Origin: Candidatus Uhrbacteria bacterium | GTDB taxonomy: Bacteria > Patescibacteriota > Patescibacteriia > UBA9934 | Length of the DNA: 64,000 nucleotides | NCBI GenBank assembly: GCA_018673485.1 | Contig: JABHCP010000011.1 | Span: 5,417 to 69,416 of the forward strand | Reading direction: 5' to 3' | Part shown: positions 13,403 to 46,062 of the stretch, in pieces | How positions within the stretch are numbered: the first letter of the stretch is position 1 | Layout: the number at the start of each line of letters is the position of its first letter | Made by a program: the position numbers and the translations under genes | Notes under the pieces: generated by a model | Database searches by the model: none | The model's input: only the letters and a program-made list of their open reading frames with translations | What the model was told of the DNA's origin: nothing

Positions 13403-13525
<123 letters not shown>

Positions 13526-21780: not shown

Positions 21781-21818
21781 TCCCCCTTCCCAAGGGGGAC
21801 AACAGGGGGTTGCCGTTA
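21781..21818 (+). repeat. GC-rich palindromic repeat R1 (tcccccttcccaagggggacaacagggggttgccgtta); includes stop codon of DUF559 gene
   Basis: ccccc/ggggg hairpin plus GTTGCCGTTA tail; homologous copies R2-R4 nearby. Confidence 0.75.
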
Positions 21819-23349: not shown

Positions 23350-23424
23350 ATCCGGGGTAGCTCAGCGGCAGAGCAGCTGACTGTTAATCAGCGGGTCGTG
23401 GGTTCGAACCCCACCCCCGGAGCC
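23350..23424 (+). tRNA. tRNA-Asn (anticodon GTT), CCA encoded
   Basis: acceptor tccgggg/ccccgga, anticodon loop ctGTTaa, T-loop ttcgaac. Confidence 0.85.
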
Positions 23425-24961
23425 AAGTGGAACGATCAGTAGAAGTGCTGATCGTTTTACTTTTGAGTGATGCTAAATCTAGCACGTAATTAAAAGGTTT
23501 TCTTAACTCAAAGACCAGTTCTCGATCCTTCATTTTCGGGTTCTGAACAAGGAAATTTATGAATTGCTGTTTTTCGTGCAATTCAGAACCGTCAAAGATT
23601 TCCTTAGCTCTGCGTGCAACAGAAAGTACTGTACCTACAGTTGTTTTATAGTCGTAGTCTGCTTTTGAGTGTTCTTCTAGTTCAATTCCGAGTTGCTGTA
23701 TGCGGTCATTGAGCTGCTGCAACTTTTTGTCATAGTCTTGCTTAGTAATACTCGGTTCTGGCTTTGTGATCTCATCTAAATAGAAGTCCAGTAACGCATC
23801 TTTTCTTTGCGTTAGCATATTGTGATCTTTTTGGATGCGTGCAACTTGTGCCTTGTGAAAACGTACTTCAGCCTCAGAGGTCTTTCTAAGCTCTTCTACG
23901 AGCTTCTGTTGGGTCTTTTCGGTTATTGTACCGAATCGATCGAGTAATTCATTTATCGGCTGTAGAAGAACTTCCTCATTCACGTATTGTCGTTTACAGT
24001 TACCCTTGGAATTGGTACAGCTATAGTAATTCCGTTTCCAGCCATTTTTTTTACGTTTTTCTTCTGGCGATATAGCACAGCCACAATCAGCACAGGTGAG
24101 TAGACCTGCAAAGATAAAATCCTTCGTTGGTTGCTTGCTACGAGTTTTTCTACGCTTATTACTCACATCCTTACATTTATCAAAGAGTTTTCTGTCAATG
24201 AGTCGAGAATATGGATGTGGGTGTCTTGAATCATACTTCTTAGAATAAAAAATTCCGTAATAATATGACTCGTTTAATATTCTGTGGATTGTGCTAGGTG
24301 AAAGAGGGTTTCCTTTTCTGCTTCTCAGTCCTAGATTCTCAACCTCAGCAGCGATAGATTTTAGTGAATGTAGACCCGTAGCGTACATTTCAAAGATTTT
24401 GATAATTAGGTGCGCACGTTTTGGATCAGGAATAATAGTTTTGTTACCAGATAAATCCTCTGTATTCAAATACCCAATAGGGCAATAGCCCATTGTTTCA
24501 CCTTTACGACGCTTTGTTTCAAATGCTCGCTTTACATTGTCCGAAATAACGTTCGAATAATAACCTGCCATTACGAGATTCATTTCGAAATGCGTTTTCT
24601 GACCAGCAGATAGATCTGAGTTAATAACTTGTCCATCAGAAACAAAATGAAGTTCAATCTTTCCAGCTTTAGCCTGTTCATAGAGTTCAGCAACTCTACG
24701 ATCAAAGATGTTTCTAGAAAAACGATCAACTTTGTCAAAACAGACGGCAATTTTTTCGTCCGTCTGTTTCAAATAGTCCAGTATCTTGTCAAATTCATCT
24801 CGTTTTGTTTTGTAGGCACTTTCGTCGAAACTGAATGTTTCTGCGACTTCAAATTGCTTTCTTTCGCAATAATCTTCGATGCGCTTAATCTGTGCTGGGA
24901 GTGAATTGCCAGCATCTTTTTGTTCTTCGGTAGATACCCGTGCGAGGATTACTGCTTTCAT
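23384..24961 (-). CDS. large serine recombinase (phage-integrase type)
   Basis: N-terminal resolvase catalytic domain AVILARVSTEEQ, recombinase domain, zinc ribbon CADCGCA, coiled-coil; C-terminal 14 codons overlap tRNA-Asn. Confidence 0.85.
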   Translation of the reverse strand: MKAVILARVSTEEQKDAGNSLPAQIKRIEDYCERKQFEVAETFSFDESAYKTKRDEFDKILDYLKQTDEKIAVCFDKVDRFSRNIFDRRVAELYEQAKAGKIELHFVSDGQVINSDLSAGQKTHFEMNLVMAGYYSNVISDNVKRAFETKRRKGETMGYCPIGYLNTEDLSGNKTIIPDPKRAHLIIKIFEMYATGLHSLKSIAAEVENLGLRSRKGNPLSPSTIHRILNESYYYGIFYSKKYDSRHPHPYSRLIDRKLFDKCKDVSNKRRKTRSKQPTKDFIFAGLLTCADCGCAISPEEKRKKNGWKRNYYSCTNSKGNCKRQYVNEEVLLQPINELLDRFGTITEKTQQKLVEELRKTSEAEVRFHKAQVARIQKDHNMLTQRKDALLDFYLDEITKPEPSITKQDYDKKLQQLNDRIQQLGIELEEHSKADYDYKTTVGTVLSVARRAKEIFDGSELHEKQQFINFLVQNPKMKDRELVFELRKPFNYVLDLASLKSKTISTSTDRSTWLRGWGSNPRPAD

Positions 24962-26115
24962 AATTTCAAAAGGTTTTCAAGGAAGTCATTGCCGTTATTC
25001 AAATCAATAGCATTGTTTGGTTTCTTGATAAGTTTTCGTATTGTTTCTCCTTTGAATTGCGTAACGCCACGAGAATTTCTGCCCGCCCAATGTTTTAATA
25101 CGATTGTATTTTTTAGAAGGTCTTTTTGGAAAATTGATACAAGTACCTGATTAGCGATCCCGTCTGGCTCAATGCCTATAAAGTAGAAAAGGAAGACACT
25201 TTGTTCTTTAGAAAGAAATTCAAGTAATTTATCGATATTGTAGGCCTTTGGATTTGAATTTAGAACAAGAACCTTTGTTTTAATGTCTGTACACGTCTTA
25301 AAGTCATCAAAATTTCGCAAATAATCACCAAGTTGGTTGTTGGTGGAAAATTTCTTTACCTTAGTACTTTGATCTTTAATAGCTTTTACTATTTCCTGCT
25401 TTACGTTATCGTCGTTGCCCGCTATTAGATATTCAATAAGTCGCCCTCTGAGATTCACGTTCTCAATGAAGCTAGCTAGGAGGATTTCATTTCTGTATTT
25501 ATTACATCGCTCGTCAAGATCTTTTTTGAGAGTCAAGTAATCATTAGAATGTGAAAAATCGATCGATCGTTCTACTGCATTTGTAATATTACTTAATTCT
25601 TCTGAATCAGGCTGAAACTTCCTTCCACTTGCAACGATATCATTGGTAGCCGAAACCAGCCTTGCCAGATTTCCTTCAAAGCCAATCTCTTTATGGATTG
25701 CAAATAGCTCATCAAAATTGCTTGGCTCATTCGAGATTCCATTAAATGTCTTTTCAATATCAGAACCATTAAAGCTACCCCTGATATTATCGATTCTCAG
25801 CTCTTGAGAACTGTGACTAATTTTTTTCAGAAATGTAGAATTTGCCAGCATTAGGTAGTTTTTTTCAGGGGTAGCAAGGCAGACTATAAAAGGAAGTTCA
25901 TCGAATTTATGAAGGTTAGATAGAGATAGAACCGTGTTTGAAAAACTTTTACTTTTAGATGAACTGAACCTGATTGCAAATTCATCATTGTAATATACAG
26001 ACCTGTCTTTTGTTAGTGAAAACCTTTCCGAAACAAGCTTAGCTAGGCTAGATTTATTCATCTTGCCTGCACTGCCGTTTATTACCTCTAATAGGTCTTT
26101 TATAAAATTCATCAT
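24958..26115 (-). CDS. putative Type II restriction endonuclease (by operon context)
   Basis: 385-aa ORF immediately downstream of and overlapping the methyltransferase gene; no recognised motif. Confidence 0.35.
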   Translation of the reverse strand: MMNFIKDLLEVINGSAGKMNKSSLAKLVSERFSLTKDRSVYYNDEFAIRFSSSKSKSFSNTVLSLSNLHKFDELPFIVCLATPEKNYLMLANSTFLKKISHSSQELRIDNIRGSFNGSDIEKTFNGISNEPSNFDELFAIHKEIGFEGNLARLVSATNDIVASGRKFQPDSEELSNITNAVERSIDFSHSNDYLTLKKDLDERCNKYRNEILLASFIENVNLRGRLIEYLIAGNDDNVKQEIVKAIKDQSTKVKKFSTNNQLGDYLRNFDDFKTCTDIKTKVLVLNSNPKAYNIDKLLEFLSKEQSVFLFYFIGIEPDGIANQVLVSIFQKDLLKNTIVLKHWAGRNSRGVTQFKGETIRKLIKKPNNAIDLNNGNDFLENLLKL

Positions 26116-26117
26116 AT

Positions 26118-27056
26118 TTATTTCTGATCAGACAAGGAATTGCGTTCCCAAAACACACCGTCTTTATATCCTTGAATATCTGGTGATTCATCGGCCATGG
26201 TCAACCTTTTTTCAGCCAAGCAACAATATTCCTCGTTTAATTCAATTCCTATATATTTTCTACCAAGCTTTTTGGCAACAACGGCAGTTGTGCCTGATCC
26301 GATAAATGGATCTAAAACTAAATCATTTTCATTGGTTGAAGCTAATATGGTTTTAGCGACAAGCTTTTCTGGTTTTTGAGTTGGGTGATCGGTATTTTCT
26401 GGCATTGACCAAAAGGGGATCGTTATATCCGTCCATAAGTTGGAAGGGTGTGTGAGTCTGAATTTCTGACCTGCTTCGTGTTGCCAATCTTTCGCTTCTC
26501 CATTGACACGATAAGGTGCAATGACTTTTCTTTTAAGTTTCACAGCATCAACATTGAAAATATAGTCACTAGATAATGTTGCAAACCAGACATCTTCAGA
26601 ACAATTTTTCCAGTTTGATTTAGCTCCTCTACCTTTTTCACGTTCCCAAGTTATTCGGTTCTGCACGATTACATGCCTCTTCAGTACATTAAAAATCGCT
26701 TGAGACGTTTTCCAATCACAACAAACATAAATGGAGGCTGTCGTCTTTAATTTTGGTAAAAGTAGAAGAAACCAATTTTCAAAGATACTTTCATATTTTG
26801 ACTGTTTTGTTTGTTTGAACGTGTTGTTACCATAGTCCTTTGTGAGGTTGTATGGCGGATCGAGAAACAGGAGATCGACAGAATTATCCTCAACCAATCC
26901 AATCCCATCTTCCATGCTAAGATTGATAATCTTATTGAGTGGACTAGTATTCTTGCTGGATTTTGAGAGTAAATGTTTTTTTAGATCGCTTATTTCTTCT
27001 TCAGCAACGAATGTAGTCCGATTATTTTTTGCCCGTTTTTTTTCGTAATTTTTCAT
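26118..27056 (-). CDS. beta-class DNA methyltransferase (N6-adenine or N4-cytosine)
   Basis: motif IV DPPY (LLFLDPPYNL) N-terminal to motif I (DPFIGSGTT) = beta permutation. Confidence 0.8.
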   Translation of the reverse strand: MKNYEKKRAKNNRTTFVAEEEISDLKKHLLSKSSKNTSPLNKIINLSMEDGIGLVEDNSVDLLFLDPPYNLTKDYGNNTFKQTKQSKYESIFENWFLLLLPKLKTTASIYVCCDWKTSQAIFNVLKRHVIVQNRITWEREKGRGAKSNWKNCSEDVWFATLSSDYIFNVDAVKLKRKVIAPYRVNGEAKDWQHEAGQKFRLTHPSNLWTDITIPFWSMPENTDHPTQKPEKLVAKTILASTNENDLVLDPFIGSGTTAVVAKKLGRKYIGIELNEEYCCLAEKRLTMADESPDIQGYKDGVFWERNSLSDQK

Positions 27057-27060
27057 AATG

Positions 27061-27240
27061 TTACTTTTTTGAATCCTCTAAAAATTTACTAAAATCCTTC
27101 TTCATAATTCTGTATTCTTTACCAATCTTATAAGCATTTAGTCTCCTTGATTTTATGTATCGGTAGATTGTCATGATATTAACCTGCAATAGCTCTGCAA
27201 GATCTTCGGCTTTATAGAACTCTTTTTCTTTCTTGGCCAT
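27061..27240 (-). CDS. excisionase-family helix-turn-helix DNA-binding protein (59 aa; not in ORF track)
   Basis: MAKKEKEFYKAEDLAELLQVNIMTIYRYIKSRRLNAYKIGKEYRIMKKDFSKFL matches excisionase/MerR-type HTH pattern; sits 5 nt upstream of methyltransferase. Confidence 0.55.
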   Translation of the reverse strand: MAKKEKEFYKAEDLAELLQVNIMTIYRYIKSRRLNAYKIGKEYRIMKKDFSKFLEDSKK

Positions 27241-27256
27241 ACTCTAATATTATACT

Positions 27257-27520
27257 TTACTTTTCTTTACAGAGCCAGTTATCTAAAACCCCTTTGCCAT
27301 TCTTAAAATCTTCGTCAATGTCATCCCATTGACCGTCCGAGTTGTCGATAGCATCTTTTCCAGCGTGGTACATCATGTCCATGACCGCTGAATCGACCTT
27401 CTCATTTTCTATCAAGGCCATTTTCATTCTATTTAGTTCAAGGGGACTTAGACGTCTGTCTAGATTAGCCTCAAGAAAATCCTGAGCATAGTCCTCCCAT
27501 AGATAAAATAAGCAATCCAT
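27257..27520 (-). CDS. hypothetical acidic protein
   Basis: ORF only. Confidence 0.4.
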   Translation of the reverse strand: MDCLFYLWEDYAQDFLEANLDRRLSPLELNRMKMALIENEKVDSAVMDMMYHAGKDAIDNSDGQWDDIDEDFKNGKGVLDNWLCKEK

Positions 27521-27523
27521 ATA

Positions 27524-28642
27524 TTATTTGTTAATTCTTAATGGTTTATAGTTATTTATTTGATACTCTAAGTCTTTTACCCAATTGCGCAATCTGCCAG
27601 CTGACACAATCTCGCTTATTGATCTATATTCACAAATAAGCCTACTCCAAGTTCGAGTGTCAGCTTTTTTACATATAACCTCTCTCAGTTCCCGTAATCC
27701 GTTGCTTGATTGAGCCATGAGGATTATGCCAGTTAGAAAGATTAGCTGCTTTGGCTTTGTGCTTGGCTTATTGGCGGAGATTCGTTTTAGAAGTTCAATT
27801 GGACTTAATTCAAGCATGAATGAAGCCAAATTTTTTGATTTAACAATATTATTCCAATAGGTCATTAAGACTTCATTGCTAATTTTTGAGCTGAATATAT
27901 CCTTAAAGCATGGGTTCTGCGTAAGTTTAAGTTGCCTAAATACTGAATTCATTTTCTGCTTCTTAGATAGCCTGACCTCCATTCGCAGTACCTCTCTAGC
28001 ATCATTCCTGTTTTTCAGCTCATCAAATAGACTTGTTTGATAGGCTGTTCGATCACGGTCGATTGCTCGTTTTTTACCTTTATTCAAGTCAGCTATTTTG
28101 TCGTAAAAAACTAGTTCATGTGAAGATGTGTGGCAGCAAAGACTTTGACCATCATTGATATATCTAGCTCTTGCGAAATCAAAGCTCTTTCTTAAATCGA
28201 TCCGTCCTATTTGTGAAAGTATGTTCGTTGAAGTTTGCCCTCCCGACAGCATGATATTTCGGCTGTAATGCACAGATGTCACAGGGGCTTCAATTAAGTA
28301 CTTTTTGAATATGGTGACTCCCATACGTCGTAGCCTGTCTTGCAAAGTATCAATGACTTGATCAAAATCCTTATCTGCAAGTTCGTCAAGATTATTTAAG
28401 AAAAGTAGCTTTGGTGCAGAGAATTCAATTTTAATTTGCTGTTCAGGTTGGTATTTTCTGCTATATGCAGTAATTCTAGGGAAGTAAAGTCCAGTATCCT
28501 TTTCGGATTTAGAAGGGTTTCTTACATGTTTCGTGTAATGCTCAGTCCGTGAATATAAATTCCAATTGGGAATCATATTATTGTTTTCATCCATAAGAAT
28601 GATGTTTCGCTCAGGAATGCTCAGACATACGGTATCAATCAT
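27524..28642 (-). CDS. putative rolling-circle replication initiator (Rep_trans-like)
   Basis: HELVFYDK motif resembling the catalytic-Tyr YDK block of Rep_trans family; context in mobile element. Confidence 0.35.
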   Translation of the reverse strand: MIDTVCLSIPERNIILMDENNNMIPNWNLYSRTEHYTKHVRNPSKSEKDTGLYFPRITAYSRKYQPEQQIKIEFSAPKLLFLNNLDELADKDFDQVIDTLQDRLRRMGVTIFKKYLIEAPVTSVHYSRNIMLSGGQTSTNILSQIGRIDLRKSFDFARARYINDGQSLCCHTSSHELVFYDKIADLNKGKKRAIDRDRTAYQTSLFDELKNRNDAREVLRMEVRLSKKQKMNSVFRQLKLTQNPCFKDIFSSKISNEVLMTYWNNIVKSKNLASFMLELSPIELLKRISANKPSTKPKQLIFLTGIILMAQSSNGLRELREVICKKADTRTWSRLICEYRSISEIVSAGRLRNWVKDLEYQINNYKPLRINK

Positions 28643-28842
28643 AAGATTCAGGGTTAATTCTCTTGTCTACGGATATCAAGAGATCGAAGAAGCTAACTAA
28701 AGACTCAAAATCAGGTGCTTCTGATTCATCTTCAATATCTTTAGGTTGTTCTTCTTGTTGATTTAACATAAAAGCCAAGAGCTTTTGCTCCCAGCTTAAA
28801 TGAACGGCTATTTATAAATGTTTGTCTTAATTTATAAACGAT

Positions 28843-29997
28843 TTATAAATCTGGATTTTTATATCGGGGATTGATTCTAAATTTCATAGTTGACCCTTCG
28901 ATGAAATCATCAATTCCTGTAATTCGGTCAACCTCATCATTTATTTTACTCTTTGCGTAATATACTTTATTTTTTGAAGCACGTTGTCGATCATCCTTGG
29001 TGAGACCCCAATCTTCTAAGATTTCTCCACGTTCCATCCATTCATCGTCCTCAGCTTTCATTAAAGATTCCATTAGCCTAGCTGCATCGGTCTTTTTATT
29101 TCCTTTTTGCAGCAAGATCTCCTCATCTGCGAAAGTAATCCGACCCGAATCCTCATCGTAGCATTCAACAACTTGAGAGGGATTATCTTTACGATAGTTG
29201 GAGTCAAGCTCATAAATAAATATATCATTTAATACGAGATTGATTTTGATTCTGCGAATGTCGTCTTTTCTCGCATACTCTTTTTCTGGCCAAAAATCTT
29301 GCACTCCCAAATAGCCCATTTTCTCTAAAGCAAAACAGATCTGTAGCAGTGAAAAGTCGGGCAATGTTTTTGGATTACCGTAGTTGTCAATTTCATCTGA
29401 GACTATAAAGTTATATCCGTAGGTAGTTAGCATTTTTTCCTTCTCGATCTTACGCATTAAAACAAATTTCTGCATCTCAAAAGCGTAAAAATTCTTTCTA
29501 TCAACTAAAAGCCTATCCTCTACAAAGTCCTCCAAGTATTCATCAATTTTCTTGCCTAGTTTAGCTAGAGCCTCCTTGTCTATATTTTTCACTTCAAAAA
29601 CAGCTTTTTTGTAAACTTCCACCCAGACCCAAGAAAGCTGACTGACACGATCTATCGATATAGGCTTTGATTGCTTGATTAGCTCTAAGGTTTTATCAAT
29701 TTCTTTACGTTGTTTATTATTCTTCTTTGCCAATTCATCCGCATCTAATCTTGATTCTATATCAGCAACCTTTCTCACAGTTACTTTCAAATTGAGGCTA
29801 CGGCAAATATTTTCAATATCGCAATAAACGGTTCCTGGATCCTCACCATAATATCGTAAATCCCATAGGGTAAATCCATGCTTCGTTTTGGGGTACTCGC
29901 TCTCACTTTCTTTCTTTTCACTACAAAAATCATAAAGGCACCTAAACCTAAAGAACCTTTCGTCTGTTAGAAATTTTTTGCTATATTCAAAGCTCAT
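28843..29997 (-). CDS. hypothetical protein
   Basis: 384-aa ORF, divergent from nuclease gene with shared operator. Confidence 0.5.
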   Translation of the reverse strand: MSFEYSKKFLTDERFFRFRCLYDFCSEKKESESEYPKTKHGFTLWDLRYYGEDPGTVYCDIENICRSLNLKVTVRKVADIESRLDADELAKKNNKQRKEIDKTLELIKQSKPISIDRVSQLSWVWVEVYKKAVFEVKNIDKEALAKLGKKIDEYLEDFVEDRLLVDRKNFYAFEMQKFVLMRKIEKEKMLTTYGYNFIVSDEIDNYGNPKTLPDFSLLQICFALEKMGYLGVQDFWPEKEYARKDDIRRIKINLVLNDIFIYELDSNYRKDNPSQVVECYDEDSGRITFADEEILLQKGNKKTDAARLMESLMKAEDDEWMERGEILEDWGLTKDDRQRASKNKVYYAKSKINDEVDRITGIDDFIEGSTMKFRINPRYKNPDL

Positions 29998-29999
29998 GG

Positions 30000-30039
30000 C
30001 TATACTTTACTCCATGCAGTAAACAATAGTAAAGTATAG
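30000..30039. promoter_or_regulatory. operator-like inverted repeat ctatactttact-N16-agtaaagtatag in 48-bp divergent intergenic region
   Basis: 12-bp perfect arms; third half-site tatactttact at 27251-27261. Confidence 0.55.
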
Positions 30040-30045
30040 ATCAAT

Positions 30046-31530
30046 ATGCACATCACAAAAACTGACTATCTTGAATATACCTATTGCAAAAAGAATCTCT
30101 GGCTTAAAAAGTATAAACCAGAGCTTTTTGATGGAGTTGAGCTATCCGAGTTTGAGAAGAAGATTATAAAAGAAGGTAATGATGCGGATGAAGCGGCTCG
30201 GAATTTGTTTCCTGATGGTGAATTAGTAGAAATAGTAGGAGTAAATGGCATTCCAATAACAAAAGTATTTCTAGCTAGGAATACATCAACTATCTTTCAA
30301 GGAGCTTTTGAGCATGATGAATTCTTCATTCAAGCTGATGTATTGAAATATAACGATGTTTTGAAAGGTTGGGAGTTGTATGAGGTTAAGGCGACTAATG
30401 ACGTCAAAAGAACTATTCCGCATCATCATGTAAACGACTTGGCTTTTCAGAAGACTGTTATTGAAAATAACGGCGTAGAAATCGTGAAGGCTGGAGTCAT
30501 ACACCTTAATGGCGAGTATAGAAAGCTAAAGAAAGTGAATTACGATGAGCTATTTATTATTGCAGATTTAACAGATGAGGTGCTTGAGGCTCAAGATGAG
30601 GTTAAGCAACAAATGGCTGACCTGAAAACCTATTTGCACATGCCAGAGGAGAAGGGTTGTGAATGCTTGTACAGAGGAAATAATGCTCAATGTACGACTT
30701 TTGAATATTCAAATCCAGACGTGCCAGAGTATTCAGTCCATAATATAAATAGAATTGGTGGAAGTAAAAAGCTGTTTTACGACTGGATTGATCGGGGGAT
30801 ATACCATATTGCAGATATAGATAATCCTGAGAAGCTCACAGGCGCTAAAAAAGCGCAGTATAACGCTTACATGGCTGGAAAGCCGACAGTTGACCATGGA
30901 GCGATAAAAGAAGCGTTAGACGGGCTTACATTCCCTTTGCAGTTCTTTGACTATGAGGGATACTCAAGTGCCATTCCTAGATTTAGAGGCTTTGGTGCAT
31001 ATGAGCAAGTTCCTTTTCAATACTCACTCCATATTTTGCATGAAGACGGTAAGTTGGAGCATAAAGAATACCTAATTACCGATCCGCAAGACGATCTGAC
31101 TCTGCCTTTGATTGAGCAGATGAAAAAAGACTTTGATGAAAATGGCTCGGTAATTTCATGGTACAAGTCTTACGAGTCTCAACGCAATAATAAACTTGCT
31201 GAGCTTCATCCTAATCATGCTGATTTTCTTGAAGCGATGAACGACAGGATGTTTGACTTGATGACGATATTCTCAAAAAATATGTACGTCGACGCTGCAT
31301 TTAAGGGTAGCGCTAGTATTAAGAATGTTTTACCAGTGCTGGTACCTGAGTTGTCTTATAACGCTCTGAATGTACAAAAAGGTGATCAGGCCGTTGAGCG
31401 TTGGGAGAAGATGATCGACTCGAATACACCTAAGGAAGAAAAAGAGCAAATCGCCAAAGATTTGCTCGAATATTGTAAGCTAGACACGATGGCCATGGTT
31501 GAAATTTATAGGTTTTTACTGAGACTGTGA
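30046..31530 (+). CDS. Cas4/RecB-like PD-(D/E)xK nuclease fused to RNase H-like/DEDD-like domain (DUF2779-like)
   Basis: N-terminus TDYLEYTYCKKNLWLKKY resembles Cas4 start; Cys cluster CECLYRGNNAQC; C-terminal FFDYEGYS exonuclease-like motif. Confidence 0.45.
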   Translation: MHITKTDYLEYTYCKKNLWLKKYKPELFDGVELSEFEKKIIKEGNDADEAARNLFPDGELVEIVGVNGIPITKVFLARNTSTIFQGAFEHDEFFIQADVLKYNDVLKGWELYEVKATNDVKRTIPHHHVNDLAFQKTVIENNGVEIVKAGVIHLNGEYRKLKKVNYDELFIIADLTDEVLEAQDEVKQQMADLKTYLHMPEEKGCECLYRGNNAQCTTFEYSNPDVPEYSVHNINRIGGSKKLFYDWIDRGIYHIADIDNPEKLTGAKKAQYNAYMAGKPTVDHGAIKEALDGLTFPLQFFDYEGYSSAIPRFRGFGAYEQVPFQYSLHILHEDGKLEHKEYLITDPQDDLTLPLIEQMKKDFDENGSVISWYKSYESQRNNKLAELHPNHADFLEAMNDRMFDLMTIFSKNMYVDAAFKGSASIKNVLPVLVPELSYNALNVQKGDQAVERWEKMIDSNTPKEEKEQIAKDLLEYCKLDTMAMVEIYRFLLRL

Positions 31531-31594
31531 TGTGTAAAAAATACGTCAGGCCGCTAATTCTCCCAGTATATAAATATTAATAAAAGTATTTACT

Positions 31595-31828
31595 ATGATA
31601 AAAAAGAATCCATTTAAGGCCTATCTTGAGGCCAATAATCTAACGGCATACAAGGTTACCAAGGTAGTTCCATCGGAGTTTTGCGCTACCATCTATCGAC
31701 TAGCCACTCTTAAGTACCCCAGTGAATTGTCCCGCAAAAAAATAGAAGTGATCGCAATGCTTAAATGTAAAACGGGGGTCGATATGTTTGAGTGGTATGT
31801 AGAGTATCTTAAAGATCAGGAAAAATAA
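31595..31828 (+). CDS. hypothetical small protein
   Basis: ORF only. Confidence 0.35.
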   Translation: MIKKNPFKAYLEANNLTAYKVTKVVPSEFCATIYRLATLKYPSELSRKKIEVIAMLKCKTGVDMFEWYVEYLKDQEK

Positions 31829-31855
31829 GTTTATCTAGAATATCAATTCTTAATT

Positions 31856-32134
31856 TTAAAACATCACTACTTTATATTCATCTGTAATTAATCGGCCACC
31901 TTCGCAGCTATAACAGGGCAGGTCATATTCCGTTGACATATATTCACCACCACAAAATTTGCAAACATCAGCCTCTCCTTTTTCAATTTTGGATTTTTTA
32001 TAACAATCTAGGCAATATTTTTGCTCCATCGCTTTTCCATGTACTTCCACTAGCATAGTTTCCCGTTCACTCCTTTGTGAAAGTGTTAGTTGCGATTTGC
32101 ATTTATTGCATTTATATATTTGTGTACTTGCCAT
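31856..32134 (-). CDS. Cys-rich zinc-ribbon protein
   Basis: CNKC...CLDC...CKFC...CYSC pairs. Confidence 0.45.
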   Translation of the reverse strand: MASTQIYKCNKCKSQLTLSQRSERETMLVEVHGKAMEQKYCLDCYKKSKIEKGEADVCKFCGGEYMSTEYDLPCYSCEGGRLITDEYKVVMF

Positions 32135-32210
32135 ATAGTTTATAGTCCCGCATTTTTAATTATAAATCAAACAAACCTACAGAATACCGGCTCTAATTCT
32201 TGCCAGTTAA

Positions 32211-32262
32211 CAGTTCTGAACCCGTTCAGTATTCGGAGCCAGTGGGACTCGAACTAGTAATG
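32211..32262 (+). promoter_or_regulatory. upstream module U1: palindrome CTGAACCCGTTCAG + TATTCGGAGCCA + hairpin/T-run, precedes gene 32306
   Basis: shared with modules at 32941, 34345, 35475. Confidence 0.55.
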
Positions 32263-32305
32263 GTTCGAGTTTTGCTTTATAGTTAGAAAAGAATTTAGAT
32301 CTGAA

Positions 32306-32887
32306 ATGAATTTTATGAAAATACTCGACCATTTATCAAGTAATTGGACCAGACTTTCTACCGCAAAGAAAATGCTGGTTATTTTCTTGTTTGTGCTATT
32401 TTTTCTAAATTCTAATATTACAGCAATAAATCGTGGCCCATGCGTTTCATCACCTTGTGGCGGTGAAAGTTTTAGTTTTTCAGATTCAATGGTCGATATA
32501 GGTAGTAATCCGAGTTATTACATTCACACCGAATCAAACCCAATTCTTGCCCCTACTTCGTTGTTGTTATTATTAACCCCCTATGAAAAAGAGGTTGGAT
32601 TTAGTTTTCTGCAATTTCTTGCTATCGGGTTTGACAACAATCCAGATCATGAAATCGATAAAGCAGATGATGAGAACCGGGCAAGAGTAGCTTACATATT
32701 AGTTAAGGCAATTATCTTACTAAGTTTTCCATTTTGGCTGCTCGTTTCATTGTTGATTGTTAAGAAATGGTATTTCATCGTTCCTGCAATACTAGTTCTA
32801 TTTATAATTTCGTTTTTATCATTCTTCAATTTGTTTGTAATTTCTGATATGGGGGTAACAACAGCAACGTGGAACTGGCTATTTTGA
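32306..32887 (+). CDS. hypothetical membrane protein
   Basis: ORF with TM helices. Confidence 0.5.
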   Translation: MNFMKILDHLSSNWTRLSTAKKMLVIFLFVLFFLNSNITAINRGPCVSSPCGGESFSFSDSMVDIGSNPSYYIHTESNPILAPTSLLLLLTPYEKEVGFSFLQFLAIGFDNNPDHEIDKADDENRARVAYILVKAIILLSFPFWLLVSLLIVKKWYFIVPAILVLFIISFLSFFNLFVISDMGVTTATWNWLF

Positions 32888-32940
32888 TTTATAGATTTGA
32901 TACTTGATTAATTGCAAGCTCAAGCTGATCCCATCTCACC

Positions 32941-32998
32941 GTCCTGAACCCGTTCAGTATTCGAGGCCAACGATAAGCCTCAGTTTTCACTGAGGTTT
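32941..32998 (+). promoter_or_regulatory. upstream module U2: CTGAACCCGTTCAG + tattcgaggcca + terminator hairpin cctcagttttcactgagg-ttttt; TATAAT 5 nt before ATG 33071
   Basis: read directly. Confidence 0.55.
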
Positions 32999-33070
32999 TT
33001 CGTTTATAAATCCACTGACCCCGGATGGGGTTCGAACTGTGATAGAATTATTTGTGAAATATAATCATTT

Positions 33071-34270
33071 ATGAAAAATTCAGAAATACAATCTTTCCAA
33101 CCTGAAAGTGGTGAATCTAAAAAAGAACTTCTTCCAGAGCAGAAACGTAGACTTTCAGAGGTTTGGGAAAGTGTTATATTGGGAACGGATAAAAAAACCG
33201 AGCAAGATGTTGAATCCTTGTCGTCAGTAGAATTAAGAGATTTGTTGCACGGGCTACTTATGCAAGAAGGTGAAGCTCTTCTTGAGGAATGGGGTATTCA
33301 AGTTGACGAGAGTTTGACTGAACGAATTCAACAAGAAGAAGATGAAGTAGAGAAGGCTCAGCTAGAACTGCATTACATTAGACAAATACACGAACAGATA
33401 GATGGGCTAGTGCAGGAATTTGACCGTTCCAAGCCTAAAAGTACAAAGTGGAATTCTTGGCCAGATAGAATGCGTGAGAAAAAAGAATTCAATTGTGTTG
33501 GTGCTATGTTATTAGGTTCTGCTTTACTTGAAAAAGCAGGAATACAGCAGTTTACGGGAAATCCCCCAAGTCATGTTGTAAATATCGTTCGTTTATCAAA
33601 TGGTGATTGGTGGTATGTTGATTTTATGAACGGAAAAAATAATGCACAGCGAATTGAACCAACTGAAAAAGAAATTGCTGGACATCGAGTATTGGATATT
33701 AATCATCCCACGATTGATTATCGTTTAATTCCAATAACACCAAAAGAGGAGGTTGGCACTTATGTAATTGGCAACTTGGCCAGTTTGCAAAAAGACGCTT
33801 ACGACGCAATCGATGATGAACAAAGTGATGATATTGAGGTTGAAGAGGCTGTTAAATATGCGAAGAAACACAATCTATTGGAAATGGATGATTTGAGTGA
33901 ATATGGTGCATATTTATTTCCTCACGATGTGCATATTAATGAAACAGCAGAAATGAAAGAGGAGTCAGTAAGGATTGAAAGAATTCATGACAGAGACGGC
34001 ATTGCAAAAGATTCTATCGCTGGATTGTCAAGAGAGAAAATCATAGAGATGATGCAAGAAATTTCTAAAAGAGAAAGTGAGATTAGAAAATTCTTTTATG
34101 AAGATGATGATTCTGTTATAGGAAAGGCTACACCAGAACTAAAAAAGTTTTTGAATACATATCGTGACGGTTTGGTAGATTTGAAGGAGTCACAACGGGA
34201 AGAATATGAAGAAGCGATAGAAAGGATGTTAAAAAAAGTTATTTTGTTTGTAGTAAAAGAGGAAGATTAA
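33071..34270 (+). CDS. transglutaminase-like cysteine protease-fold protein
   Basis: Cys-His-Asp layout NCVGAMLLGSALLEKAGI...SHVVNIV...GDWWYVDFMNG. Confidence 0.5.
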   Translation: MKNSEIQSFQPESGESKKELLPEQKRRLSEVWESVILGTDKKTEQDVESLSSVELRDLLHGLLMQEGEALLEEWGIQVDESLTERIQQEEDEVEKAQLELHYIRQIHEQIDGLVQEFDRSKPKSTKWNSWPDRMREKKEFNCVGAMLLGSALLEKAGIQQFTGNPPSHVVNIVRLSNGDWWYVDFMNGKNNAQRIEPTEKEIAGHRVLDINHPTIDYRLIPITPKEEVGTYVIGNLASLQKDAYDAIDDEQSDDIEVEEAVKYAKKHNLLEMDDLSEYGAYLFPHDVHINETAEMKEESVRIERIHDRDGIAKDSIAGLSREKIIEMMQEISKRESEIRKFFYEDDDSVIGKATPELKKFLNTYRDGLVDLKESQREEYEEAIERMLKKVILFVVKEED

Positions 34271-34344
34271 ACAGTAGTAAAAGGCATTTGCTGAAACCTA
34301 TCCATACTGATTTTAACTATTTTATAAATCCCACACAGTTCGGT

Positions 34345-34423
34345 AATCAGGTAATCCTTGGAGCCAATAATCCTGCGCTAATTTCAGTGGAGGATTTTTG
34401 ATACCCAAATGTAATTCAGAACT
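34345..34423 (+). promoter_or_regulatory. upstream module U3 (degenerate palindrome, ggagccaataatcct hairpin, T-run, TGgTAAAAT extended -10)
   Basis: near-identical to U4 over about 70 nt. Confidence 0.55.
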
Positions 34424-34444
34424 ATGGTAAAATATTTGTGTATG

Positions 34445-35434
34445 AATGAATTTTTGAAAAGTCCTGAAGCTAAAAAATCGGAGCCAGAAGTTAAGTTTTT
34501 CTTTTCAGCACATGGAACACCTGAAGACTATAGGGGTATCGAGCAGGCATTCAGTGAAGCTGATATTTACGTACTTGAATCTCATGCTTGGAAAGATGGC
34601 GATCTCGAAGAATTAAGATCAATCGCAAGTGGGGACACTGTCCCAACTCATATTAGTGAGGGACGAGAACCGAAGGATGCTATAGAATACGAGGAGGAGC
34701 TTTTATATAAGAGCGGAAAGCGGGTTGAGATCGTAGATGTGCCAATGGAGCATGAATTAGCTAATGAAGATGATGGCTCGAGCAAATACAATGATATTGT
34801 AGATCGGTTTGTAGCACAGGGGGATTTAAATAGCTCAGTAGAGAGCTTGCAGGATACGGCAAGGCAAAATGCTGACTACATAAAAAAGAAAGATGATTAT
34901 GTAGAAAAAGAACTCAAAAAACTCATAGACCAGATTGCAGACGAGTCCCCAGAGGCAAAGATACTTGTACAAATGGGTTCTTCACATTCGGGAATCTCGC
35001 ATAAATTAAGAAAAGAGGGCGTGGCTAAGCGAGTAATGAATGAAGTTCGTTATGATTTCAACGATGAGCTTTTACGAACTTTTCGCTTCAATAAGGAGCC
35101 GAATACGGAGTTAATTTCAAGATCATTAATTGAACAGACAATAAAACGATTCTTTTTTGATGAAATGATAAAGGTTCCATATTTATTAAGAAATAAATTT
35201 TTCAGAGATACTCTTTCGGACATTTCCACTGAACAAGTCCAACAAATGGGACAGATTATGGAGTCTAGATACTTTGACGAAATGATTATGGGAGGCGGTG
35301 ATGATACGCCCGAAACAAATAGAGTGATATTCGTCTATGCATGGGAGGCTGTGATAGGGTCTGATATAAATCTTCTAATATCCCAACTTGAAATGCAGGT
35401 CTCTAACGATGACAAGAAGGAAGATGATGTTTAG
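34445..35434 (+). CDS. hypothetical acidic protein (ORF track start 34424 lies within the -10 element)
   Basis: ORF; leaderless arrangement. Confidence 0.45.
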   Translation, partial: NEFLKSPEAKKSEPEVKFFFSAHGTPEDYRGIEQAFSEADIYVLESHAWKDGDLEELRSIASGDTVPTHISEGREPKDAIEYEEELLYKSGKRVEIVDVPMEHELANEDDGSSKYNDIVDRFVAQGDLNSSVESLQDTARQNADYIKKKDDYVEKELKKLIDQIADESPEAKILVQMGSSHSGISHKLRKEGVAKRVMNEVRYDFNDELLRTFRFNKEPNTELISRSLIEQTIKRFFFDEMIKVPYLLRNKFFRDTLSDISTEQVQQMGQIMESRYFDEMIMGGGDDTPETNRVIFVYAWEAVIGSDINLLISQLEMQVSNDDKKEDDV

Positions 35435-35474
35435 GCGAATCGATGCATACTTTGATTAACTCTACCCCAATCAA

Positions 35475-35579
35475 CAGTCCTGAACCCGTTCAGTATTCGG
35501 AGCCAATAATCCTTCGCTAATTTCAGCGGAGGATTATTTATACCAAAATATAATTCAGAACTGGTATAATATTTCGTGT
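35475..35579 (+). promoter_or_regulatory. upstream module U4: CTGAACCCGTTCAG + tattcggagccaataatcc hairpin + T-run + TGgTATAAT extended -10, 9 nt before ATG
   Basis: read directly. Confidence 0.6.
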
Positions 35580-36302
35580 ATGGATAAAAATAAGCACAAG
35601 ATGATAGTCACCGCATCCTTTTTTAGCATTTTTCTTCTTTGCATATTAAATATAGGAATTATTTTTCTCGATTCACATGTAAGCTTCTGGGAAATGAGCC
35701 TTATGGTTGGATTTATATTATTAATACAAAGTATCTATCTACTCACACGAACTAAATATATTAAGGTAATATTTTTCATTCTGCTTGTGGTAGTTTCAAT
35801 AACATTATTTTTTGTAAATTCGCCATGGAAATTAATCGATACCTCTCAAATGTACTGGATTTGGCAGTATGAGAATTTAGAACCATATTCTTTTACTTTA
35901 TCTGGGCTTGATTTTGAAGCCCCATGCCCCTCCAGCCCCACAATAACTGATACTCAATTTAATTGTGAGAATGGTTTATTGAAAATCGACGTTACTCAAG
36001 ACAACGGCTTTGCTTTTGCGCTTGCAAGTAATGGAGTGTCCATAGGTCATGCACCGATGACTTACCCAGTCCTACATGGAATGTCGCCATTTTCTAGCAT
36101 ATCACTGCATCTGGATGAAGATAATTGCATAACGGCATTACCCCTAATCGCATATGAAGATGTTAGAATTGATTTTTCAGCAAAAGTTTGCGGAGATGAA
36201 GGTGATACTAAGGGTGCAATAACCTCACTTTGGGAACAACGTGCCGAACCTTTAATGAAAGGGGTATCATTCCCAGATGGAGGATACATTTCGGAGTATT
36301 AG
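35580..36302 (+). CDS. hypothetical membrane protein
   Basis: N-terminal TM helices. Confidence 0.5.
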   Translation: MDKNKHKMIVTASFFSIFLLCILNIGIIFLDSHVSFWEMSLMVGFILLIQSIYLLTRTKYIKVIFFILLVVVSITLFFVNSPWKLIDTSQMYWIWQYENLEPYSFTLSGLDFEAPCPSSPTITDTQFNCENGLLKIDVTQDNGFAFALASNGVSIGHAPMTYPVLHGMSPFSSISLHLDEDNCITALPLIAYEDVRIDFSAKVCGDEGDTKGAITSLWEQRAEPLMKGVSFPDGGYISEY

Positions 36303-36929: not shown

Positions 36930-36944
36930 CCAATCAGCATTGAT

Positions 36945-37106
36945 ATGAATATTAAAATCAAAGTTTTACTTTTCATCTTAGCAATATTGACGGGTGTATT
37001 TATGTTCGTATATGCTGGAATAGATGACAGCCCAGGTGGGCAGTTAATCGGAGTCATAGTATCTATCTTTGGTGCCGTTAGTTTGATAGGGATTAAGAAT
37101 AAGTAA
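36945..37106 (+). CDS. small 2-TM membrane protein (53 aa), paralog of 40122-40298
   Basis: MNIKIKVLLFILAILTGVFMFVYAGIDDSPGGQLIGVIVSIFGAVSLIGIKNK; ORF-track antisense ORF 36926-37114 rejected. Confidence 0.5.
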   Translation: MNIKIKVLLFILAILTGVFMFVYAGIDDSPGGQLIGVIVSIFGAVSLIGIKNK

Positions 37107-40108: not shown

Positions 40109-40121
40109 TAATATCGATCCT

Positions 40122-40298
40122 ATGAGTATAAAGATCAAAATTCCAATATTCATCTTGATGATGTTGCTCGGTGTGCTCATGTTCGTATACGCCGGAGTAG
40201 ACGATAGCCCCGGAGGGCAATTGATAGGAGTTGTCGTTGTTATCCTTGGGATCGTTGGTTTGGTAAGGATCATTATTCGATGGAAAAATAATAAATGA
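40122..40298 (+). CDS. small 2-TM membrane protein (58 aa), paralog of 36945-37106
   Basis: MSIKIKIPIFILMMLLGVLMFVYAGVDDSPGGQLIGVVVVILGIVGLVRIIIRWKNNK. Confidence 0.5.
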   Translation: MSIKIKIPIFILMMLLGVLMFVYAGVDDSPGGQLIGVVVVILGIVGLVRIIIRWKNNK

Positions 40299-44268: not shown

Positions 44269-46062
44269 ATGGCGCAGCCTTTACTCGAAGTTAATGGCGT
44301 TTCAAAGACCTACGGAAAGCAGGTTGTTCTTAACGATATCTCTTTTCAGATAGCCCAAGGAAAAAAGATTGCACTAATTGGCCGCAACGGAGCAGGGAAG
44401 TCAACTTTGTTGAAAATTCTAATCGATGAAGTTGAAGCTGATACGGGTAGCGTAAAATTATTTGACTGGACAAGAGTCGGTGTCATTCATCAAAATGAAG
44501 TTTTACCAACAAACAAATCATCCTTGGAGTATTTAGAAGAGCTAAGCGCCAAGCCTTCATGGGAAGTGCGTAAATTAGGAGCCAAGTTTGGCCTGCACGA
44601 TGATCACCTCACAAAATCACCCGGACAGCTCTCAGGGGGCTACCAGATGCGAATAAAGCTAACTGGAATGTTTTTGCAAGACCCGAACTTATTGTTCTTG
44701 GACGAGCCTGTCAACTATCTGGACTTGCAAACTATTTTATTGCTTGAAAATGTTTTAGCTGACTACAAGGGCAGTTTTGTTCTTGTAGCGCATGACCGAA
44801 CTTTTCTGCAAAACACTTGTGATGCGGTTTATGAGATTGAACGCGGAAAACTCACAACGTACAATGGTGACATCCAATCATTTTTAAAATGGAAGCAGGA
44901 GCAAGCCGAATTCACACTTCGCACGAATAAAAAGCTAGTAAAAGAAATGAAGCATCATCAAAAATTTGTTGATCGTTTTGGTTCAAAGGCAAGCTTGGCC
45001 AGCCGAGCACAGAATAAGGTGAAGCATATTTCACGACTTCGATCGAAAATTGTAAAAATAGATGTCGACCTCGCAACTACCAATATTTACATTCCTTCAA
45101 AAGAAGCACACCCCGGTGTTGCTTTGCATGTTGAAGATTTGTCCATCGGATATGAAGAGAATGTACTGAGTAAAGACATATCATTTAGTATCAATCGTGG
45201 CGAGAAGGTGGTAATAGTTGGTGAAAACGGAGCAGGGAAGTCAACACTACTGAAAAGCATCGTTGGGAAAATCAAACCACTGAGCGGTGAGGTTAAATGG
45301 TGGAAACATTCAAGTGTTGGATATTACGACCAGTTAACAAGCTCATCACTTGATGACCGTAATACCGTACTCGATCACCTAACTGAAAGTGCCGATAGTG
45401 CAACATCAGCTGAGCAAATACTCATGATGGCAGGAAACTTCTTATTTAAAGGTGACGACTTGGATAAGCGAGTCAACGTTCTGTCAGGTGGTGAACGTGC
45501 ACGGCTCGCACTCGCCGGCGTGCTTTTGAAAACTCACAATGTTCTGATTTTGGACGAGCCCACCAACCACATGGATGTTGAAACTACTGACGGGTTAGCG
45601 CTAGCACTCAAAAACTATAAAGGCACGGTTATATTTGTTTCGCATGCCCGAACTTTCGTAAGTACACTAGTTGATCGAATCATCGAGGTTCGACACGAGT
45701 CAGTTCGAGAATACATGGGAACTTACGATGAGCATGTTGAAAATGTGATGGAGTTGATGCGCGAGGATGTAAGTGATGCAAATTCAGACTTATCAGATGA
45801 GGGTAAAAGTGGAGATCAAGCATCGCGCAAAGAAAATTATGCGCTAGTAAAAGAAAAGCAACGTGAGCTAAAACGAATCGACGCTCAAATTCAAGTGTTC
45901 GAGTTGGAAAAAAGCGACATTCTAAAATTCTTTTTCGAAAATCCCACAGACTACTCACCACCCCGAGCCCAACGACTAGGACAACTAAAAGATGAACTAG
46001 AAGCAATTGAGAGTAAATGGGTGAAAATTTCAGAAGAGATCGAAGCTCTTAGACAAAACTAA
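44269..46062 (+). CDS. ABC-F family ATPase (two ABC domains, no TMD)
   Basis: two Walker A (GRNGAGKST, GENGAGKST) and two LSGG signatures. Confidence 0.85.
   Translation: MAQPLLEVNGVSKTYGKQVVLNDISFQIAQGKKIALIGRNGAGKSTLLKILIDEVEADTGSVKLFDWTRVGVIHQNEVLPTNKSSLEYLEELSAKPSWEVRKLGAKFGLHDDHLTKSPGQLSGGYQMRIKLTGMFLQDPNLLFLDEPVNYLDLQTILLLENVLADYKGSFVLVAHDRTFLQNTCDAVYEIERGKLTTYNGDIQSFLKWKQEQAEFTLRTNKKLVKEMKHHQKFVDRFGSKASLASRAQNKVKHISRLRSKIVKIDVDLATTNIYIPSKEAHPGVALHVEDLSIGYEENVLSKDISFSINRGEKVVIVGENGAGKSTLLKSIVGKIKPLSGEVKWWKHSSVGYYDQLTSSSLDDRNTVLDHLTESADSATSAEQILMMAGNFLFKGDDLDKRVNVLSGGERARLALAGVLLKTHNVLILDEPTNHMDVETTDGLALALKNYKGTVIFVSHARTFVSTLVDRIIEVRHESVREYMGTYDEHVENVMELMREDVSDANSDLSDEGKSGDQASRKENYALVKEKQRELKRIDAQIQVFELEKSDILKFFFENPTDYSPPRAQRLGQLKDELEAIESKWVKISEEIEALRQN

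Follow-up and report, generated by a model that had tools for sequence, protein, structure and literature searches.

Repeat modules downstream of a tRNA-Asn gene in a Candidatus Uhrbacteria contig as probable insertion scars of a large serine recombinase

A 64-kb stretch of contig JABHCP010000011.1 (assembly GCA_018673485.1, Candidatus Uhrbacteria bacterium, Patescibacteriota), hereafter the window, contains a tRNA-Asn gene, a gene for a large serine recombinase (LSR) that runs into this tRNA gene and, further to the right, four small genes separated by a repeated module. We describe here the module, the array of genes that it delimits, and the relation of both to the recombinase. Coordinates are in window numbering throughout, unless a label of the form L0xx, or JAQCKO01, is given; such labels denote other contigs or loci that were compared with the window. 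The initial annotation of the window had reported the module as a perfect palindrome followed by a match to the end of tRNA-Asn, a hairpin and a -10 element, and had offered two explanations, a cassette-type recombination system or a co-regulated regulon under one palindromic operator.

The tRNA-Asn (GTT) gene, the integration target, lies at 23351..23425 on the plus strand (ARAGORN; 69.4 bits with the Rfam tRNA model). Its last 8 nt, CGGAGCCA (23418-23425, plus strand), form a core that could be read again in scars 1 and 3, described below; the earlier match of GGAGCCA in the module to the tRNA-Asn 3' end is thus correct and extends to 8 nt. The LSR (525 amino acid residues; 23384..24961, minus strand; Pfam Resolvase PF00239, Recombinase PF07508, and Zn_ribbon_recom PF13408) extends 42 nt into the tRNA-Asn gene, and its last 13 codons, WLRGWGSNPRPAD followed by a stop, are antisense tRNA, which is the integrated (attL) form of the gene. 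The protein ends in ...STDRST-WLR-GWGSNPRPAD, in which WLR corresponds to TGGCTCCG, the reverse complement of CGGAGCCA, and the remainder to the antisense T-arm. Directly 3' of tRNA-Asn, the element supplies a hairpin with a T-run (23426..23461, plus strand; minimum free energy -21.3 kcal/mol, z = -7.2), whose minus strand encodes the LSR residues ..KTISTSTDRST. The GC content of the island (about 23.4 to 38 kb) is 0.36, whereas it is 0.42-0.45 outside.

The LSR gene is part of an intact 8.8-kb element (23426-32241), bounded by two junctions that share CGGAGCCA (23418-23425 and 32234-32241). Besides the LSR, the element encodes a type II restriction-modification (RM) system, consisting of a type II restriction endonuclease (24958-26115, minus strand; PADLOC REase_II, E = 4.5e-142) and an N6/N4 methyltransferase (26118-27056, minus strand; PF01555), a 59-residue HTH_17 protein with an excisionase-type helix-turn-helix (27061..27240, minus strand; PF12728), and a DUF2779 / RecB-Cas4-like nuclease (30046..31530, plus strand; Pfam E = 1.8e-37), a marker of the element family. 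Several orphan genes also lie between the LSR gene and the first module. The same HTH_17 gene is present in the L027 element, and its product might serve as the directionality factor. The DUF2779 protein is 78-83% identical in L002, L003, L004, L011, and L018, where its gene is always found 0.7-4.4 kb upstream of a scar and on the same strand. The right end of the element is scar 1 (32167..32241, minus strand; nhmmer E = 2.5e-14), which carries the tail WLRILNGFRTVNWQELEPVFCRFV with its stop, the 14-bp sequence discussed below (32216-32229), and the core CGGAGCCA (32234-32241).

L002 and L003 are contigs labelled as metagenome-assembled genomes of Neomarinimicrobiota and Gammaproteobacteria, and carry the same element, with a DUF2779 protein 80-83% identical to that of the window. 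L003 also has homologs of window core genes at 49.9-55.5 kb. These features suggest that L002 and L003 are mis-binned Patescibacteria contigs rather than cases of transfer between phyla.

A scan with a peptide pattern and an nhmmer profile detected four scars in the window, ending at 32241, 32969, 34366, and 35505; the same peptide pattern and profile detected no further scar in the window, including the interval from 35.5 to 43.2 kb (a PNP gene is located at 43188). The four scars are attachment (att)-type repeats that all point the same way and follow a single target gene, and the units to the right of scar 1 have no recombinase: unit 2 (32242-32969), unit 3 (32970-34366), unit 4 (34367-35505), and a last unit from 35506 onward, which has no recognisable distal scar.

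Unit 2 starts with a terminator-like hairpin (32242..32276, plus strand; 16 pairs in the consensus terminator scan, z = -5.5), contains cargo gene 1 (32306..32887, plus strand), which encodes a hydrophobic protein of 193 residues, and ends in scar 2 (32889..32969, minus strand; nhmmer E = 2.3e-9), which reads WPRILNGFRTVRWDQLELAINQVSNL and a stop, has the 14-bp sequence at 32944-32957, and has a core mutated to CGAGGCCA. The left end of unit 3 (32970..33065, plus strand) consists of a hairpin (32970-33003, z = -6.0), a T-arm-like motif, GGGGTTCGAACTG (33026-33038), and TATAAT (33060-33065); cargo gene 2 (399 residues; 33071..34270, plus strand) follows, and the unit ends in the diverged scar 4' (34322..34366, minus strand; nhmmer E = 0.011), which reads WLQGLPDYRTVWDL and a stop, lacks the 14-bp sequence, and has the core GGAGCCA at 34360-34366. 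Unit 4 has a left end of the type that we call T3 (34367..34433, plus strand), with a hairpin (34369-34396, z = -3.2), a TTCAGAAC motif, and the extended -10 element TGGTAAAAT (34425-34433). Its gene, cargo gene 3 (34442..35434, plus strand), encodes an acidic protein of 330 residues, and its scar 3 (35431..35505, minus strand; nhmmer E = 2.9e-11) reads WLRILNGFRTVDWGRVNQSMHRFA and a stop, with the 14-bp sequence at 35480-35493 and the core CGGAGCCA. The last unit also has a T3 left end (35506..35570, plus strand), with a hairpin (35506-35537, z = -7.0), the TTCAGAAC motif, and the extended -10 element TGGTATAAT (35562-35570), followed by cargo gene 4 (35580..36302, plus strand), which encodes 240 residues with a hydrophobic N-terminus.

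None of the four cargo proteins matched Pfam (also at E <= 5), NCBIfam, or PADLOC, and the label "transglutaminase-like" formerly given to the product of the gene at 33071 has no such signal in these three collections. The start of cargo gene 3, formerly placed at 34445, is corrected to 34442. This gene is the only one of the four with homologs, which occur as single-gene units in L001 and L029 too.

The repeat noticed by the initial annotation is real; it had been described as a 14-bp perfect palindrome at all four genes, but the exact 14-mer, CTGAACCCGTTCAG, occurs only three times in the window, at 32216, 32944, and 35480, and its reverse complement is CTGAACGGGTTCAG, with two 6-bp arms around a non-palindromic CC (a 6-2-6 inverted repeat). 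When up to two mismatches were permitted, 0.30 matches were expected by chance, and none of 100 shuffled sequences reached 6. The three copies belong to a family of 52-nt direct repeats with 75-77% identity. The stretch TATTCGGAGCCA, which had been given as shared by the modules, is exact in two copies, but copy 2 reads TATTCGAGGCCA. The fourth site, before the gene at 34442, is without the 14-mer; it shares with the copy at 35499-35562 a 64-nt block of 91% identity that comprises GGAGCCA, the hairpin, and the promoter region, and its left part is a diverged homolog at the peptide level (WLQGLPDYRTVWDL and a stop vs WLRILNGFRTV...). Three copies are thus well preserved and one has diverged, and the repeat is not a product of chance.

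The left half of the module is coding sequence. On the minus strand, all 18 distinct copies obtained by the pattern search encode WLRILNGFRTV.W..., with a stop within 10-20 codons. Positions just upstream of an invariant 20-mer core vary with a 3-nt period; in the Thr (ACN) and Val (GTN) codons, the third positions vary and the amino acids are constant, and minority bases number 16, 9, and 38 at the first, second, and third codon positions, respectively (permutation p = 0.03). The palindrome consists of the codons CTG AAC GGG TTC AG(A), which specify L-N-G-F-R on the minus strand in the C-terminal tail of the recombinase, and the same 14-mer is found inside the intact LSR genes of L004 and L027. 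Other tail types in the LSR family keep the peptide motif and have no palindrome, for example GTTCTAACATCCTCCACGATGCGGAGCCA, which encodes IVEDVRT. The left half of the module is a stranded native C-terminal tail of an LSR, ending in the core, and the proposal that the palindrome itself is a recombination or operator site is not upheld, as the sequence is coding, with synonymous variation beside it, and other tails are without the palindrome.

The tails of LSR homologs pointed in the same direction. A search gave 2397 homologs with E <= 1e-20, from Patescibacteria or Paceibacterota wherever the source was named. Among the best 120 of these 2397, about 57 have tails that read through into a tRNA gene (..WLRGWGSNPRP, WLRGRDSNPRP, or WLPRLDSNQ), 27 have a stop immediately after WLR, and 18 have native tails (WLRILNGFRTTNRKEW.., WLRLLDGFRTTNWKEWNMAMAQVAL, WLRILNEFRTVNW.., or WLPLLDKFRTLNW..). 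The presence of two tail classes in the homologs, together with displaced tails at the distal junctions, indicates that the LSR open reading frame (ORF) spans attP, the attachment site of the free form. The read-through tails also differ among themselves in a patterned way (GWGSNPRP, RLDSNQ, DLDSNQD, and QDSNLRP), which, judged from these endings, would imply that LSR subfamilies occupy different tRNA genes sharing an ...AGCCA 3' end.

The right half of the module is conserved in structure. As the initial annotation had stated, a strong hairpin is present directly after GCCA at all four sites (z = -3.2 to -7.0 vs shuffled sequences), and among other loci and the window together, 32 of 32 flanks, including two genuine tRNA-Asn flanks, have a strong A-tract/hairpin/T-tract at this position (median z = -5.5, all below -2), the structure being kept and the sequences differing. 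The consensus terminator scan lists only two of the four hairpins in the window. After the hairpin come a T-arm-like motif (GGGAYTTCAGAACC or GGGGTTCGAACTG), an extended -10 element (TGnTAnAAT), and, 5-9 nt further on, an ATG. The -10 boxes reported earlier are indeed located at 33060, 34425, and 35562, but the site before 32306 is weaker; the spacing to the ATG, read from the sequence, is 5 nt for TATAAT (33060-33065), 8 nt for TGGTAAAAT, and 9 nt for TGGTATAAT. A -35/-10 consensus scan called none of the four -10-like boxes, and there is no purine-rich Shine-Dalgarno stretch. As far as can be read from the DNA, the arrangement agrees with leaderless transcripts, and the right halves would have both terminator and promoter activity. 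Left ends of the types T2, T3, and FESH recur before at least five unrelated genes across genomes. For example, 34389-34435 in the window is 95.7% identical to 1906-1952 in L029, and 34389-34433 is 95.6% identical to 5845-5889 in L029, and in L029 both segments precede other genes.

The motif 55-65 nt past the core (GGGAYTTCAGAACC or GGGGTTCGAACTG) is an inverted near-copy of GGTTCTGAACCC within the scar. Sites of this T-arm-like motif are found in the window (33026-33038, 34409-34421, and 35548-35560), in L001 (about 124-138), and in flanks from L016, L005, and L027. The whole module of about 115 nt is thus a loose palindrome centred on the terminator loop, in which the T-arm-like motif could be an accessory binding site or a promoter element. 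In addition, at some junctions a perfect 24-nt palindrome, GCCATGCACCGTACGGTGCATGGC, starts in the core GCCA, with a second GGAGCC(A)/GGAGG behind it (L011, about 2440-2463; L029, 1886-1905, 5431-5457, and 5825-5844; L030, about 3454); a small insertion or a duplication of the core may have given rise to it.

The exact 20-mer of the module was found in five stretches of genome contigs and 13 metagenome contigs, and at each of these loci a hairpin and a T-run follow, with sequences that differ between loci. A viral collection contained neither a match to the module nor a relative of the LSR. Junctions of the attP type, in which an intact LSR gene with a native tail abuts the DUF2779 end of an element, were found in L004, L025, L026, and L027; the choice between a circle and a tandem arrangement is settled only for L027, which is a tandem. 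The order in L027 is tRNA-Asn / LSR#1 (read-through tail) ... DUF2779 ... / LSR#2 (545 residues, native tail); these are two full elements in tandem with an internal P-O-P' junction.

Longer arrays were also found. In JAQCKO01, a tRNA-Asn gene lies 7 kb upstream of the module, and at least ten scars lie downstream of this gene, delimiting units with mostly one plus-strand gene each, plus two remnants of LSR pseudogenes. L029 has at least eight core sites, and the same architecture is found in L029, L016, L012, and L003. Debris of LSR genes was seen as a 13-codon stump of the second LSR in L015 and as pseudogene pieces in L001 (1105-1458 and 7777-7952) and L018 (2176-2571). The initial annotation had proposed that array content be compared across relatives, and L029 permits such a comparison: it derives from a relative (its ABC-F protein has 80% amino acid identity to that of the window) and is syntenic with the window on the left (a 92-residue gene and scar 1) and on the right (PNP, ABC-F, and a zinc-finger gene). 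Despite this synteny on both sides, the content differs; the array of L029 encodes RibD_C, GIY-YIG, dCMP deaminase, racemase, and KNTase proteins, and only the 330-residue family of cargo gene 3 is common to both. This family forms a single-gene unit between scars in three arrays (the window, L001, and L029), with different neighbours in each. In L006, a tRNA-Lys gene starts 2 nt after the GCCA of the module, as expected if what follows GCCA belongs to the tRNA cluster of the host.

In the case of L001, a 21-nt fragment of the tRNA-Asn 3' end (CGAATCCCACCCCCGGAGCCA; 1104-1125) is joined to the LSR pseudogene at 1105-1458, which has a read-through tail. This is a displaced old attL from which the 5' part of the tRNA is gone, and a simple model of insertion at one site does not explain it. 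L020 was considered as an empty site; it matches the window without a difference as far as mid-tRNA-Asn, beyond which come another tRNA-Asn 3' half and DNA of about 65% GC, and it was rejected as a probable chimera, assembled across the conserved tRNA.

The coding tail, its two classes, the attP-type junctions, the stacking at tRNA-Asn, and the variable content are direct observations, and with them we conclude that the modules are very probably scars of serine-integrase insertion at tRNA-Asn, and that the four genes are units of a variable insertion array rather than an operator regulon. The region would be a composite island that arose as LSRs of a family abundant in Patescibacteria inserted, site-specifically and more than once, at the tRNA-Asn 3' end. 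NCBI lists an identical protein under Candidatus Uhrbacteria. In the free (attP) form, the LSR ORF would cross the attachment site and end in a tail of the form WL(R/P)-h-h-(N/D/E)-x-(F/V)-R-T.... Crossover would occur in or immediately beside the 8-bp core (TGGCTCCG / CGGAGCCA). After insertion, the LSR adjacent to the tRNA would read into antisense tRNA (WLRGWGSNPRP...), and the segment coding for the native tail would be left at the far end of the element as the left half of a module, the right half being the start of the next unit, with its terminator-like hairpin, extended -10 element, and plus-strand gene. The element would thereby replace the tRNA-Asn terminator with a look-alike hairpin, and the occupied site would presumably still be a target, such that new arrivals insert beside the tRNA and older units are moved outward.

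The hairpins of attL and attR are different but internally complementary, so the point of exchange is placed to the left of the hairpin; a crossover in the hairpin loop, where a larger imperfect palindrome is found, was rejected as attL and attR each keep perfectly complementary arms that differ between them. We also considered the distance of GTTC(T)GAACCC from the core, which is 10 nt in the module and 5 nt in the tRNA, as the spacing of attP and attB half-sites, and dropped this as unsupported.

Several points weigh against repeated insertion as described above. For canonical serine integrases, attP and attL are not a substrate pair, so an LSR that inserts again at an occupied tRNA would need a relaxed specificity. 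Neither an empty attB nor a circular form was recovered from the contigs compared, so that the position of the crossover follows from the shared 8-nt core alone. Because the loci were retrieved by an exact match to the 20-mer, its invariance among them is an artefact. The right halves could not be traced to LSR 3' ends: blastx was no better than with shuffled sequences, and of 27 right flanks, only two (L015 and L005_5433) gave a significant nhmmer match to a profile built from intact LSR 3' ends. Simple insertion and decay do not account for a promoter segment that precedes unrelated genes and is 95.7% identical in two genomes, given that the genes common to both have an identity of about 74%. 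Finally, in a population check of contigs carrying the 399-residue gene or the Lgt gene, all four contigs with the window array had the same arrangement, with no sign of current movement in the population.

Of the other explanations, pure decay survives best. Here the small units are the remains of full-size LSR elements from which the recombinase and cargo were deleted, and they never moved alone; we give this close to an even chance. LSR pseudogene fragments in the arrays (L001, L018, and L015), the existence of tandem full-size elements (L027), and the mutated scars 2 and 4' are in line with it, and the genomes of Patescibacteria are reduced, so that deletion of useless integrase genes is expected. 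On the other hand, decay would need many independent deletions, each ending a few nucleotides before a start codon and sparing the hairpin and the -10 element; most units are without LSR debris, and separate deletion events would hardly yield conserved left ends before unrelated genes.

Active cassettes are also possible, with the balance somewhat against them. According to this explanation, which refines rather than contradicts insertion scarring at tRNA-Asn, single-gene mini-elements, each with a terminator, a leaderless promoter, a gene, and a half-site from the LSR tail, would be circularised by the resident LSR and reinserted at the tRNA-proximal core or at other scars. The units in the window, JAQCKO01, and L029 are compact and without pseudogene debris; in L001, a single-gene unit lies directly beside an intact tRNA-Asn gene, ahead of an older LSR remnant; and the recurrence of the 330-residue family among different neighbours, the different array content of syntenic relatives, and the left ends of types T2, T3, and FESH before unrelated genes of different genomes would all be expected of mobile units. 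However, no circular junctions or alternative arrangements were seen among the contigs with the window array, and in the 20-25 bp rightward of the core, where a P' half-site is expected, the unit types show no conserved sequence. Cargo genes are not inherited together with their flanks, since the gene flanked by T3/ILNGFRT sequences in the window has flanks of the IVEDVRT type in L001 and L029, and known serine integrases are unidirectional and specific for a pair of sites. The cassette-type recombination proposed in the initial annotation is therefore retained in part: LSR junctions at tRNA-Asn, the variable content, and the recurring cargo family speak for it, but the palindrome as its mechanism does not stand.

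A regulon, in which CTGAAC-CC-GTTCAG is the operator of a dimeric regulator controlling the four genes, is very improbable, as nothing favours it beyond the repetition of a dyad-symmetric 6-2-6 sequence upstream of three genes, and this sequence lies 90-130 nt upstream of the start codons and beyond a strong terminator hairpin, is coding with conservation at the peptide level and synonymous variation adjacent to it, and is absent from the fourth module and other tail types but present in intact LSR genes (L004 and L027). Hardly more credible is a structured RNA, i.e., a small RNA, or a product cut from the upstream mRNAs, in the form of a tRNA-like 3' element or a minihelix with GCCA at its end: the module resembles the tRNA-Asn 3' end (GGTTC-GAACCC ... 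CGGAGCCA) with a terminator next to it, a stem of 8-9 bp is possible between GGTTCTGAA and TTCGGAGCC, and in L006 the tRNA-Lys gene follows GCCA, but the last is expected if tRNA-Asn and tRNA-Lys are neighbours in the host, no Rfam match or ARAGORN call was obtained, the sequence variants disrupt this stem no less often than they leave it intact, the consensus fold consists of one stem and lacks consistent compensatory changes, and the 3-nt periodicity and conserved peptide account for the conservation. Alignment to tRNA and folds of single sequences also gave this candidate no support, and the minus-strand reading frame was decisive in rejecting it.

Insertion scars of a serine recombinase at one host gene have a known analogue in the composite islands of staphylococcal cassette chromosomes (SCC; SCCmec and related), in which Ccr large serine recombinases act at the 3' end of rlmH/orfX. 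As in SCC, an LSR inserts at the 3' end of a conserved host gene, and tandem units are separated by direct repeats of the core, some of them without a recombinase. Unlike in SCC, the target here is a tRNA gene, the LSR ORF crosses attP and its C-terminus is changed, most units are 0.7-2 kb long and consist of one gene that has a terminator and a -10 box of its own, and the hosts are Patescibacteria.

The array resembles integrons in that mostly single, unrelated genes are arranged in one orientation, are separated by repeats derived from a recombination site, and vary between relatives. It differs from them in having no IntI (the only recombinase of the island is the serine recombinase), no attI, and no imperfect hairpin of the attC type; each unit has its own hairpin and -10-like promoter element rather than a common Pc, and the repeats are fragments of an integrase gene. 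An identification of the module as an integron attC was rejected: it does not fit the R''/R' core motifs, the 6-2-6 repeat is not conserved in the family, and there is no IntI. Cis-mobilisable elements (CIMEs), which accrete beside integrative and conjugative elements, have been described for tyrosine-integrase elements of streptococci. By analogy, the units in the window would be att-flanked elements without their own recombinase that could be mobilised by the autonomous element lying in tandem with them; unlike in CIMEs, there are no conjugation genes here, and the recombinase is a serine recombinase.

Tandem integration at tRNA genes, with partial tRNAs and fragmented integrases, has been described for tyrosine-integrase elements (10.1101/2020.12.28.424599; PMC7192596), and according to the Islander study of 2014, serine integrases were not known to target tRNA genes (PMC4383910). 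Like the tRNA islands of tyrosine integrases (Islander/TIGER and the tycheposons of Prochlorococcus), the region described here has att fragments, fragmented integrases, and cargo-only remnants (10.1101/2020.12.28.424599; PMC7192596; PMC4383910), and here too, successive insertions at one tRNA would displace older elements, as they do, inward, in those systems. Unlike in those islands, the integrase is a serine integrase, and the marker of an insertion is mostly a displaced integrase tail with 8 nt of tRNA, rather than a long tRNA fragment. Mx8 and SSV provide known cases of an integrase ORF crossing attP (PMC4383910; PMC6070905). As with IntP/IntX of Mx8 and the SSV type, integration here changes or splits the integrase ORF, and in Mx8 the new 3' end alters the properties of the protein (PMC6070905; PMC4383910); unlike these tyrosine recombinases, the enzyme here is a serine recombinase, in which only the last 25 or so codons are exchanged.

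Our literature search found no description of such serine-integrase arrays at tRNA genes, which may nevertheless exist elsewhere. What differs from the known systems is the combination of serine integrases targeting a tRNA 3' end, an ORF across attP, arrays of single-gene units, and a Patescibacteria host. It is possible, though less likely than not, that this is a serine-recombinase counterpart of the integron in Patescibacteria, in which single-gene units with leaderless-type promoters and terminators of their own are captured and shuffled at the tRNA-Asn 3' end and mobilised in trans by a tail-exchanging LSR; the exchange might switch activity or directionality (cf. Mx8 IntP/IntX). If single-gene units are mobile, they would constitute a second, mechanistically distinct gene-cassette system beside integrons.

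The WLR-ILNGFRT signature on the reverse strand, together with the tRNA core, can serve as a marker of integration events and unit boundaries in Patescibacteria, in which mobile elements are poorly charted. The LSR family, with at least 2,397 homologs (E <= 1e-20), targets tRNA 3' ends, and integration rewrites the tail of the LSR, which may be a built-in state switch in enzymes of interest for genome engineering. The arrays may also be a route by which reduced genomes sample orphan and defence genes, such as RM systems and nucleases.

Some further repeats were seen in the window. To the right of the last scar, in the variable region, 36944-37093 and 40121-40270 form a 150-nt direct repeat (72% identical) with two ORFs of about 53-58 residues. 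A GC-rich 40-nt repeat (CCCCCTTCCCAAGGGGGACA.CAGGGGGTTGCCGTTACTC; 68-75% identical) is present to the left of tRNA-Asn at 21782-21821, 22411-22450, and 22691-22730, one copy just downstream of a DUF559 gene and two inside the Lgt ORF. At 13254-13313, a 30-mer is perfectly duplicated in tandem (CTACAATTAACGACCTGACCCCACGATGTA, twice), about 90 nt upstream of a tRNA-Ser gene (13403-13492). Finally, two divergent paralogs of ABC-F-type ATPases, 28-32% identical (44269-46062, plus strand, and 46963-48480, minus strand), flank a treble-clef zinc-finger gene.

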